Shown here: positions 9,775 to 10,268 of the stretch, piece by piece
How positions within the stretch are numbered: the stretch's first letter is position 1
How the letters are laid out: the number at the start of each line of letters is the position of its first letter
IMG/VR virus record: IMGVR_UViG_2526164661_000012
Direction: 5' to 3' (one strand)
DNA length: 40,486 nt
From: a virus
Taxonomy: Duplodnaviria; Heunggongvirae; Uroviricota; Caudoviricetes
The notes under the pieces: model-generated
What the model was told of the DNA's origin: nothing
Databases searched by the model: none
Seen by the model: the letters and a program-made list of their open reading frames with translations, nothing else
Translations under genes and position numbers: made by a program

Positions 9775-9794
9775 TACTGTAAATATAAACAGTG
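9775..9794. promoter_or_regulatory. LexA (SOS) box TACTGTAAATATAAACAGTG
   Basis: Exact CTGT-N8-ACAG palindrome in AT-rich spacer about 45 nt upstream of the ATG at 9836, overlapping plausible -10 region. Confidence 0.65.
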
Positions 9795-9835
9795 GTTATG
9801 CATACAGTGTTGCTTGTGGTGTCATAGGAGGAAAA

Positions 9836-10024
9836 ATGCAGGACTATTTTTTGGAGTCTTTGAAGCTCCAGCGCATTGATTTTTTTCTTAAGCTTGTAGC
9901 GGCTAGTGAGTGTAGTGATGAAGAGAAGGGGCTGGCTCTGCAGTGGGTTTCTGAATTGACTGATGAACTCATGGCAAAGATCAGAATCCACGAATACAAC
10001 CGCTCAATGGATGTCATCAGTTGA
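9836..10024 (+). CDS. Hypothetical SOS-regulated small protein (possible Tum-like antirepressor N-terminal part)
   Basis: 62-aa product from internal ATG at 9836 (MQDYFLESLK...) with AGGAGG ribosome-binding site; the longer track ORF from 9728 would include the LexA box, so the shorter start is preferred. Confidence 0.45.
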   Translation: MQDYFLESLKLQRIDFFLKLVAASECSDEEKGLALQWVSELTDELMAKIRIHEYNRSMDVIS

Positions 10025-10034
10025 GGTGGCTTTT

Positions 10035-10268
10035 ATGCGCATTGAAATAATGATCGATAAAGAGCAGAAAATTAGCCAGTCTACTCTGGACGCCCTTGAA
10101 TCCGAGCTTTACCGCAATCTGCGCCCCCTGTATCCCAAAGCGGTAATTCGTATCCGTAAAGGTAGCTCTAATGGTGTGGAACTGACCGGACTGCAACTGG
10201 ACGAAGAAAGAAAACAAGTGATGAAAATTATGCAGAAGGTGTGGGAAGACGACAGCTGGCTGCATTAA
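10035..10268 (+). CDS. DinI-family protein
   Basis: 77 aa (MRIEIMIDKEQKISQSTLDALESELYRNL...KVWEDDSWL); resembles E. coli DinI (MRIEV...ETWESADDWF) by recall; GAGGTGG ribosome-binding site. Confidence 0.7.
   Translation: MRIEIMIDKEQKISQSTLDALESELYRNLRPLYPKAVIRIRKGSSNGVELTGLQLDEERKQVMKIMQKVWEDDSWLH

Follow-up and report, generated by a model that had tools for sequence, protein, structure and literature searches.

The region at positions 9,775–10,268 of the window (the whole stretch of viral DNA that was analysed, 40,486 nucleotides) is, with a probability of about 90%, the split version (tumA + tumB) of the SOS operon found in P2-like prophages of the 186/Fels-2 type. The preliminary description had proposed an SOS-triggered induction module here, and this was supported by homology, synteny, a conserved LexA box and the requirement of the orthologous gene for induction of the E. 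coli HS prophage DuoHS. Modules of this type are already known, ordinary and common, and the present one resolves no open question. The prophage in the window could be defective elsewhere. Replication gene A (gpA, 7310–9682; PF05840, 8.6e-128) lies directly 5' of the module, the window also carries CI and CII of the 186 type, and the gene order after gene A is the same in 186, PSP3, Fels-2 and DuoHS. The module contains two genes, each with its own RBS:

9826–9831, plus strand: RBS AGGAGG of tumA, seen in the sequence and invariant in the Fels-2-type upstream alignment
9836–10024, plus strand: tumA (ORF1), 62 aa, predicted antirepressor with homology to the N-terminal half of 186 Tum (PHROG matches, near-identity to DuoHS)
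10023–10026, plus strand: RBS GAGG of tumB, overlapping the tumA stop codon
10035–10268, plus strand: tumB (ORF2), 77 aa, DinI family (Pfam PF06183), with homology to the C-terminal half of 186 Tum

ORF2 matched the Pfam DinI family PF06183 with an E-value of 7e-23 (81.2 bits against a cutoff of 24.2) over domain positions 1–63 of 63. It also matched E. coli DinI (PDB 1ghh) with E = 2.7e-6 over residues 1–75, an end-to-end alignment that includes the acidic, W-containing C-terminal tail. Unlike E. coli DinI, ORF2 is phage-encoded and would be co-transcribed with an antirepressor gene. DinI proteins act on RecA filaments, and TumB may modulate them in the same way. When aligned with 186 Tum, ORF2 corresponded to residues 71–145 at 40% identity.

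ORF1 matched phrog_698 (3.5e-37), phrog_8554 (4.4e-8) and also phrog_1993. Residues 7–44 of 186 Tum matched phrog_698 (6.7e-6) and phrog_8554 (3.3e-12), and the N-terminal half of Tum also matched phrog_1993. The hhalign comparison of ORF1 with this half was colinear over columns 4–44 (P = 0.00098) with a modest probability of 22%, and neither 186 Tum nor PSP3 TumA could be aligned with ORF1 by pairwise BLASTP. The assignment to the N-terminal half therefore rests on the PHROG cross-hits, synteny and near-identity to DuoHS tum, and the relation to 186 Tum itself is remote. ORF1 was identical at 61 of 62 residues (98%) to DuoHS ECHS_RS04495 and at 60 of 62 to Fels-2 STM2728. The AF2 model of TumA showed a two-helix hairpin (pLDDT 90). 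A Foldseek search of this model against the PDB returned generic helical-hairpin matches only (E of about 1 or higher), which carry no functional information, and a PDB sequence search with the TumA profile gave noise only (E = 0.2 or higher). TumA-like genes that have a LexA box and no DinI partner were found (ESSI2_ev015 and Yersinia vB_YenM_06.16-2), which points to the small protein as the essential component of the module. ORF1 is labelled 'hypothetical protein' in nearly all records and 'levan regulatory protein' in a few. The practical value of the analysis is thus in annotation, with the 62-aa gene named tumA (antirepressor) and its partner tumB (DinI-like).

The preliminary description had left two options for the pair, a genuine two-gene arrangement (62 aa plus a 77-aa DinI-family protein) or a disrupted tum-like gene. 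Two observations would fit the second option: 186 Tum is a single 146-aa ORF, and ORF1 and ORF2 lie in different frames, offset by +1 across a 10-nt gap, as a frameshift or stop codon in a recently broken and decaying 186-like gene could leave them. The comparison with relatives pointed the other way. The lengths of 62 and 77 aa were conserved across diverged relatives, each ORF has its own RBS and start codon, and the gap between tumA and tumB in relatives was 10, 11 or 12 nt, giving a frame relation of 1, 2 or 0. Neither a single recent lesion nor a conserved programmed frameshift is compatible with this varying relation. At dS of up to 1–2, dN/dS was 0.03–0.12 for the two ORFs (0.07–0.12 for tumA, 0.03–0.07 for tumB), values that indicate strong purifying selection on both genes. 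The same layout was present in 1125 of 5426 complete E. coli genomes (~20%) and also in many Klebsiella and Salmonella P2-like phages, and the PSP3 record annotates tumA and tumB as separate genes. From these comparisons ORF1 and ORF2 are read as a genuine two-gene unit and the disrupted-gene option was rejected, its probability being negligible. Among 186-like Tum relatives, many of the matches longer than 100 aa were fused forms cut at contig ends, and by these matches both split and fused forms exist in that group. Production of a TumA–TumB fusion by programmed frameshift or read-through was considered for the pair as well and rejected: the ORF2 frame is open for 25 codons upstream here and for 4–14 codons in relatives, and the offset varies.

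The operator and promoter elements 5' of the two-gene unit are the following, with no strand assigned to the LexA boxes:

9752–9757, plus strand: putative −35 hexamer TTTACA, an invariant island in five Fels-2-type upstream regions; the SOS promoter to which it would belong is the counterpart of p95 in 186
9773–9778, plus strand: putative −10 TATACT, overlapping LexA box 1, proposed from the sequence and the alignment
9775–9780, plus strand: alternative putative −10 TACTGT, 17 nt from the −35 and in line with the p95 annotation of 186
9775–9794, no strand: LexA box 1, TACTGTAAATATAAACAGTG, 17/20 against the consensus TACTGTATATATATACAGTA, with a perfect CTGT-N8-ACAG core
9790–9809, no strand: putative LexA box 2, CAGTGGTTATGCATACAGTG, 13/20 against the consensus, overlapping box 1 by 5 nt

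The exact CTGT-N8-ACAG palindrome reported earlier was confirmed, with its single occurrence in the whole window at 9777–9792; LexA box 1 lies 41 nt 5' of tumA. Taken alone, the 8-base motif has no statistical significance, as 0.67 copies are expected per window by chance and 51 of 100 shuffles held at least one. It could then be a chance palindrome in AT-rich intergenic DNA, with the two genes outside SOS control and their expression either constitutive or due to early-operon read-through; a terminator scan found none between gene A and the LexA box, and the sigma-70 scan called no consensus promoter, which would both suit such expression. We consider this extremely improbable. The LexA 20-mer with at most 3 mismatches was unique in the window and was reached in 0 of 100 shuffles. 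The exact box was observed 18–48 nt 5' of the tum/tumA start in 8 of 8 other Peduoviridae from six genera; by a rough estimate, chance would give it ~0.003 times per 170-nt upstream region. With the prophage in the window included, the box preceded tum/tumA in all nine phages, although the upstream regions of those eight were otherwise mostly unalignable between groups. The record of 186 annotates the counterpart site as the LexA operator of p95, and DuoHS, in which the sequence of box 1 is identical, loses induction in lexA(Ind-) (PMC12055606).

The claim that the palindrome overlaps the likely promoter held for its position and for the conserved hexamers and found no match in the consensus scan. 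The sigma-70 consensus scan called no promoter here because the best hexamers are 15 nt apart and the scan takes spacers of 16–18 nt only. In the upstream alignment of Fels-2-type phages both hexamers stand out as conserved islands, as do the LexA boxes and the RBS. LexA box 1 and the −35 hexamer are identical in Fels-2 and DuoHS, and the −10 annotated for p95 in the 186 record is TACTGT inside the LexA box.

Box 2 has a good right half-site and a degenerate left half (CAGTGG...TACAGT pattern), and the island ACAGTGG.TAT...TACAG is conserved in Fels-2-type phages. Its match to the consensus in the window (13/20) was weaker than in Fels-2 (15/20), and the copies of Fels-2 and DuoHS differ from that of the window at 2–4 positions. 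Compared with box 2 of a cloacin/colicin-like operon, the window's copy was identical at 16 of 20 positions and the Fels-2 copy at 20 of 20. The 40-nt operator at 9773–9812 was identical at 32 of 40 positions to the operator of this cloacin/colicin-like bacteriocin gene, and the Fels-2 copy at 36 of 40. The layout is that of a colicin-type double SOS box, two overlapping 20-bp boxes at 9775–9794 and 9790–9809, with the same 5-nt overlap CAGTG as in the colicin/cloacin double boxes. In colicin operators two LexA dimers are bound and repression is very tight (PMC2994835). By analogy box 2 is probably also bound by LexA, and in the prophage of the window LexA would occupy both boxes. The colicin/cloacin operons differ in that the operator drives a bacteriocin there and a phage antirepressor here, and in the position of the boxes: just 3' of the −10 in the colicin-like operon, with box 1 over the putative −10 here.

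The presumed target of TumA is encoded in the same window:

2800–3741, minus strand: immunity repressor CI of the 186 type, 313 aa, comprising a pair of HTH domains and a single C-terminal domain

CI matched Phage_CI_repr (in two stretches) and Phage_CI_C in Pfam, and no Pfam match to a Peptidase_S24 (self-cleavage) domain was detected in it. Its residues 136–309 matched 186 CI (PDB 2fjr) with 1.8e-28. The repressor is thus of the non-cleavable 186 CI type, in a variant with a duplicated HTH. Neither this duplication nor LexA box 2 was mentioned in the preliminary description. Overall, the CI of the window is 48% identical to that of DuoHS and has an extra HTH.

The proposed mechanism is as follows. 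In the lysogen, host LexA would sit on the operator over the −10 of the promoter just 3' of replication gene A. After DNA damage, RecA-stimulated self-cleavage of LexA would free the promoter and a short bicistronic mRNA would be made. The helical hairpin of TumA would then bind the 186-type CI, which lacks the self-cleavage domain, and keep it off its operators, so that the early lytic promoter opens and the prophage is induced. TumB, which corresponds to the DinI-like half of 186 Tum but stands alone, most likely acts by tuning the activity of RecA filaments and would therefore affect the strength or duration of the SOS signal. A module working in this way would set when the prophage leaves lysogeny, with damage read through host LexA and a small antirepressor and not through self-cleavage of the repressor.

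TumA was at least 97% identical across prophages with CI only 40–52% identical overall. This would be unexpected for a strictly immunity-specific partner, and DinI-like genes are common prophage cargo whose role in induction is unclear (PMC3121763). Both points would fit a module that serves the host or lysogen as an SOS-modulating 'moron', acting on RecA activity and survival after damage, with the prophage induced by another route. Such a role is highly improbable as the explanation of the module, since deletion of tum abolishes induction of DuoHS (PMC12055606) and no alternative induction route is visible with a CI that lacks the S24 domain. Moreover, the conservation of CI is concentrated in the HTH: the HTH domains of those CI proteins are ~64–77% identical, and in the CI comparison 49 of 64 positions were identical in the HTH against 40 of 102 in the C-terminal domain. 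As the HTH is the conserved part of CI, a shared target of TumA is still plausible, and by analogy with 186 we infer that TumA binds the tandem-HTH CI of the window. We tentatively suggest, as an unlikely but possible extension, that the Fels-2-type TumA is a broad-range antirepressor reading the conserved CI HTH, with a colicin-type double LexA operator, either exchanged with Col plasmids or convergently evolved, setting a high, delayed induction threshold. In that case, a single TumA made in the SOS response could also induce co-resident prophages whose CI is of another variant, including the tandem-HTH CI of the window. For work on induction thresholds and on cross-talk between P2-like prophages, the colicin-like double operator and the tandem-HTH CI offer modest starting points.

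It could also be argued that the DinI-like ORF2, through RecA, is the real inducer and that the 62-aa ORF1 is accessory or irrelevant. Of the two ORFs, only ORF2 falls into a curated family, its match to PDB 1ghh ties it to proteins acting on RecA filaments, and the overlap of the tumB RBS with the tumA stop codon means that a tumA deletion could lower tumB translation. The deletion in DuoHS, however, hit the 62-aa ORF, with the start fused to the stop codon, and induction was lost; the gene deleted there as 'tum', ECHS_RS04495, lies directly 5' of the DinI-like gene, and Delta-tum and lexA(Ind-) each abolished mitomycin C induction and lysis (PMC12055606). The deletion test suggested in the preliminary description had thus already been carried out on a 98%-identical orthologue. 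In PSP3, Lemire et al. (PMC3121763) ascribe the antirepressor activity to the upstream gene. LexA-boxed TumA-like genes occur without any DinI gene, CI of the 186 type has no RecA-dependent cleavage domain, and dinI homologues could be deleted from Gifsy prophages without significantly affecting their induction (PMC3121763). Induction driven by ORF2 is thus highly improbable, and TumA is retained as the predicted antirepressor of the operon.

Among the closest known systems is that of phage 186, and the equivalence to its LexA-controlled Tum proposed earlier was well supported: the position after gene A and the orientation are the same, the box lies over the −10, ORF2 aligns with the C-terminal part of Tum and the PHROGs are shared. 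Features annotated in the 186 record include p95, the LexA site, Tum and a truncated Tum of 76 aa that starts at a GTG. An N-terminal antirepressor part and a C-terminal DinI-like part are present in both systems, the DinI-like part is also made separately in 186 from the internal GTG, and the target CI is of the same type (Phage_CI_repr and CI_C domains). Work on 186 cited in PMC3121763 showed that its Tum protein binds CI and prevents this repressor from binding DNA. The differences are that 186 has one 146-aa ORF where two genes in different frames are found here, that its N-terminal part is only ~18% identical to ORF1 with no pairwise BLAST match, that it has a single LexA box where a second, overlapping box is found here, and that orf97 lies downstream in its operon, in place of the hairpin and the unrelated convergent cargo of the window.

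PSP3 has the split two-gene layout, with a LexA box 20 nt 5' of tumA. In its record, tumA carries the note 'similar to 5' end 186 tum; UV induction of prophage' and tumB the note 'similar to dinI and 3' end of 186 tum', and Lemire et al. (PMC3121763) state that tum is split in two in Fels-2 and PSP3. PSP3 differs from the window in that its tumA falls in the 186-like subfamily and shares 15% identity with ORF1, its tumA and tumB lie in one frame with a stop and one codon between them, and it has a single LexA box. Fels-2 (STM2728/STM2726.1) and DuoHS (ECHS_RS04495/ECHS_RS04500) carry essentially the same module as the window, with the same 10-nt gap and the same frame offset, and differ from it in their downstream cargo. 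DuoHS occupies the same chromosomal site, on the rybB/ybjL side, but its CI has 189 aa and a single HTH, compared with 313 aa and a tandem HTH here. Gifsy-1, -2 and -3 likewise have a LexA-repressed operon with a small antirepressor and a DinI homologue, and their repressor is inactivated by binding and not by cleavage (PMC3121763). They differ in being lambdoid phages with dinI first, followed by the antirepressor GfoA/GftA and then irsA, and in having antirepressors and repressors of other families.

The two-gene unit is closed on its 3' side by one further feature:

10271–10313, no strand: GC-rich hairpin, an inverted repeat with 19-nt arms

The folding energy of this hairpin was −27.8 kcal/mol (z = −4.75), a value reached in 0 of 200 shuffles. 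No plus-strand T-run was found in it and the terminator scan made no call, and it is probably a terminator or a stem that stabilises the transcript, and may serve the convergent gene too. The one terminator-like match, at 10013–10030, from the tumA stop to the tumB RBS, was attributed to chance, as it was not conserved in relatives and 0.7 such matches are expected by chance. PADLOC gave no match for the neighbouring cargo ORFs, and direct repeats in 9683–10540 were limited to short, chance-sized matches. Similarity to phages 813R9 and 500465-1 stops at ~10323, just past the hairpin.

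The window is a 186/Fels-2-type, P2-like prophage, with the following landmarks:

1-1131, minus strand, integrase
2800-3741, minus strand, 186-type CI repressor (the immunity repressor)
4030-4593, plus strand, CII/CP76
5740-6483, plus strand, Dam methylase
7310-9682, plus strand, replication endonuclease gpA
9836-10024, ORF1 (tumA), 62 aa, AGGAGG 5' of the start
10035-10268, ORF2 (tumB), 77 aa, GAGG overlapping the ORF1 stop codon
37709-37787, minus strand, RybB sRNA (105 bits), host flank
37867-39552, minus strand, ybjL, host flank at the right end
39822-40199, plus strand, ybjM, host flank at the right end

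DuoHS, the prophage of E. coli HS, occupies the same chromosomal site, with ybjL/ybjM just right of ogr. The module comprises the 153-nt gap 3' of gpA and the next two small genes, and it is the SOS operon already described in prophages of the Fels-2/PSP3/DuoHS type, with Tum split into TumA and TumB. The split arrangement is thus not new.

ORF1 was identical to Fels-2 STM2728 at 60 of 62 residues and to E. coli HS ECHS_RS04495 at 61 of 62. ECHS_RS04495, a 62-aa gene immediately 5' of a DinI-like gene, is the locus tag called 'tum' in the Phollow study (PMC12055606, supplement). In that study mitomycin C no longer caused DuoHS lysis once tum was deleted from start to stop, or once a lexA(Ind-) allele was present (PMC12055606). 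The LexA box of DuoHS is identical to that of the window (box 1, 9775-9794). Because of this identity and the 98% identity of the DuoHS tum gene, the deletion test suggested in the preliminary description has effectively been performed already on the orthologue. Homology, conservation and these genetics support its reading of the region as an SOS-triggered induction module.

The preliminary description had left open whether the two ORFs are a genuine pair or a disrupted tum-like gene. Both ORFs were confirmed in the sequence, in different frames and 10 nt apart, and ORF2 clearly belongs to the DinI family (Pfam 7e-23, PDB 1ghh 2.7e-6). In Fels-2, SopEPhi, MLG42, ST437phi4.1 and 813R9, which formed the comparison set for the pair, ORF1 was always 62 aa and ORF2 always 77 aa, and dN/dS values were low (0.07-0.12 for ORF1, 0.03-0.07 for ORF2) with dS up to 1-2. 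Across relatives the gap between the ORFs was 10, 11 or 12 nt, giving a frame relation of 1, 2 or 0. The varying frame relation therefore rules out both a recent lesion of a single tum ORF and a conserved frameshift fusion of TumA to TumB. From these comparisons ORF1 and ORF2 read as two genes, not one broken gene, and the genuine two-gene arrangement is the alternative to be retained.

The module was carried by 1125 of 5426 complete E. coli genomes and found in 67-73 phage records. TumA-like genes lacking a DinI gene were found behind exact LexA boxes in ESSI2_ev015 (locus L005, 1201-1413) and vB_YenM_06.16-2 (locus L006, 1177-1359), so the DinI partner is dispensable in some lineages. The 186-like subfamily also has stand-alone 'Tum protein' genes of 63-78 aa. 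Gene callers often push the tumA start upstream to ATG 9728 or similar, which yields an 84-109-aa 'protein'; this extension (9728-10024 in the window) is an annotation artefact, as its translation would run through the promoter and the LexA boxes. A few records name tumA 'levan regulatory protein'.

In phage 186 the p95 promoter, the LexA site and tum all lie 3' of gene A. The 186 Tum antirepressor has 146 aa, and an internal GTG additionally gives its DinI-like C-terminal half as a separate product. ORF2 was 40% identical to Tum residues 71-145. Pairwise BLAST of ORF1 against 186 Tum and PSP3 TumA detected no similarity. Three PHROG families were common to ORF1 and the N-terminal half of Tum, among them phrog_698 (ORF1, 3.5e-37; Tum residues 7-44 on family positions 7-44, 6.7e-6) and phrog_8554 (4.4e-8 for ORF1, 3.3e-12 for Tum). 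HHalign profile-profile comparison of the ORF1 family with the Tum N-terminal family gave a colinear match over columns 4-44 with P = 0.00098 and a probability of only 22%. For PSP3, GenBank annotates the two counterparts as tumA ('UV induction of prophage') and tumB, and Lemire et al. describe tum as split into two halves in Fels-2 and PSP3 (PMC3121763). The proposed equivalence to the 186 tum position agrees with the ORF2 identity, the shared PHROG families and the same layout after gene A.

The CTGT-N8-ACAG palindrome was present as described, occurring once in the window (9777-9792), and the surrounding 20-mer TACTGTAAATATAAACAGTG (9775-9794) matched the LexA consensus at 17 of 20 positions. 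The bare 8-base motif means little by itself, since 0.67 occurrences are expected per window by chance; a LexA 20-mer with at most three mismatches occurred in 0 of 100 shuffles. Each of the eight other phages compared, from six genera (186, PSP3, Fels-2, SopEPhi, ESSI2_ev015, vB_YenM_06.16-2, vB_YpM_MLG42 and ST437-OXA245phi4.1), had the exact palindrome 18-48 nt 5' of its tum or tumA start. The sequence around the boxes was too diverged to align between groups. This cross-phage conservation is a stronger argument against chance than the shuffle statistics.

Overlap of the box with the promoter is judged from position. A consensus scan, which accepts 16-18 nt spacing, found no promoter at tumA, but the position of the best hexamers (TTTACA 9752-9757 and TATACT 9773-9778, 15 nt apart) and their appearance as conserved islands in the alignment favour it, as does 186, where the annotated p95 -10 (TACTGT) lies within the LexA box.

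The conserved operator island ran on past box 1 into CAGTGGTTATGCATACAGTG (9790-9809), a putative second LexA box overlapping the first by 5 nt, with a good right half-site, a degenerate left half and 13 of 20 consensus matches. A 41-nt Fels-2 operator query matched 1190 plasmid records, most typed mobilizable, the best being ColE1-type plasmids of about 9-34 kb. In the two records inspected, the match lay ~40 nt 5' of a colicin/cloacin-like bacteriocin gene with immunity and lysis genes. The cloacin-like operator was identical to the 40-nt operator of the window at 32 positions and to the Fels-2 copy at 36 of 40, with box 2 at 20/20. The window operator is thus very similar to the double SOS box known from colicin and cloacin operons, through either shared ancestry or convergence. 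Only one box is present in 186, PSP3, ESSI2 and the phage of Yersinia enterocolitica. A double LexA lock on an antirepressor, as predicted here, would make biological sense and offers a modest lead.

The CI ORF (313 aa) contains two Phage_CI_repr HTH domains (~aa 22-86 and 131-195, identical to each other at 41 of 64 positions) followed by one CI C-terminal domain. The 186 CI (PDB 2fjr) matched at 1.8e-28 with only aa 136-309 aligned. No S24 cleavage domain was found in this 186-type CI, and an antirepressor is therefore needed. The tandem-HTH CI was also present in Klebsiella phage 4LV2017 (98% identical) and in the ST437-OXA245phi4.2 group of Klebsiella phages; as the layout persists there at only 52% identity over full length, it is a maintained variant.

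In the most likely sequence of events, LexA would hold the promoter repressed in the lysogen until DNA damage removes it. TumA, whose AF2 model was a two-helix hairpin (pLDDT 90), would then bind CI and keep it off its operators, so that the lytic cycle begins, and TumB would modulate RecA/SOS. TumA was at least 97% identical in prophages with CI proteins only 40-52% identical overall; between the window and DuoHS, CI identity was 49/64 in the HTH and 40/102 in the C-terminal domain. Contact of TumA with the CI DNA-binding domain would be compatible with conservation concentrated in the HTH. TumA may be a broad-range antirepressor, or cross-induction may occur; this possible cross-reactivity and the tandem-HTH CI are modest leads.

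Three ORFs of 154-179 aa (1143-1631, 1749-2213 and 2258-2797, all on the minus strand) lie between the integrase and CI. They gave no confident Pfam family and no PADLOC match, with one weak DUF4747 hit, and are probably a second cargo/moron slot. A stable hairpin at 10271-10313 (dG -27.8, z = -4.75) ends the two-gene unit, and similarity to several relatives stopped either with the tumB stop codon or shortly past this hairpin. Between it and the portal gene lies variable cargo:

10535-11065, minus strand, cargo ORF, 176 aa, phrog_37247, no Pfam or PADLOC match
11783-12865, plus strand, cargo ORF, 360 aa, weak Peptidase_M48 match

In Fels-2, DuoHS, A41 and 813R9 this position 3' of tumB is occupied by other genes.
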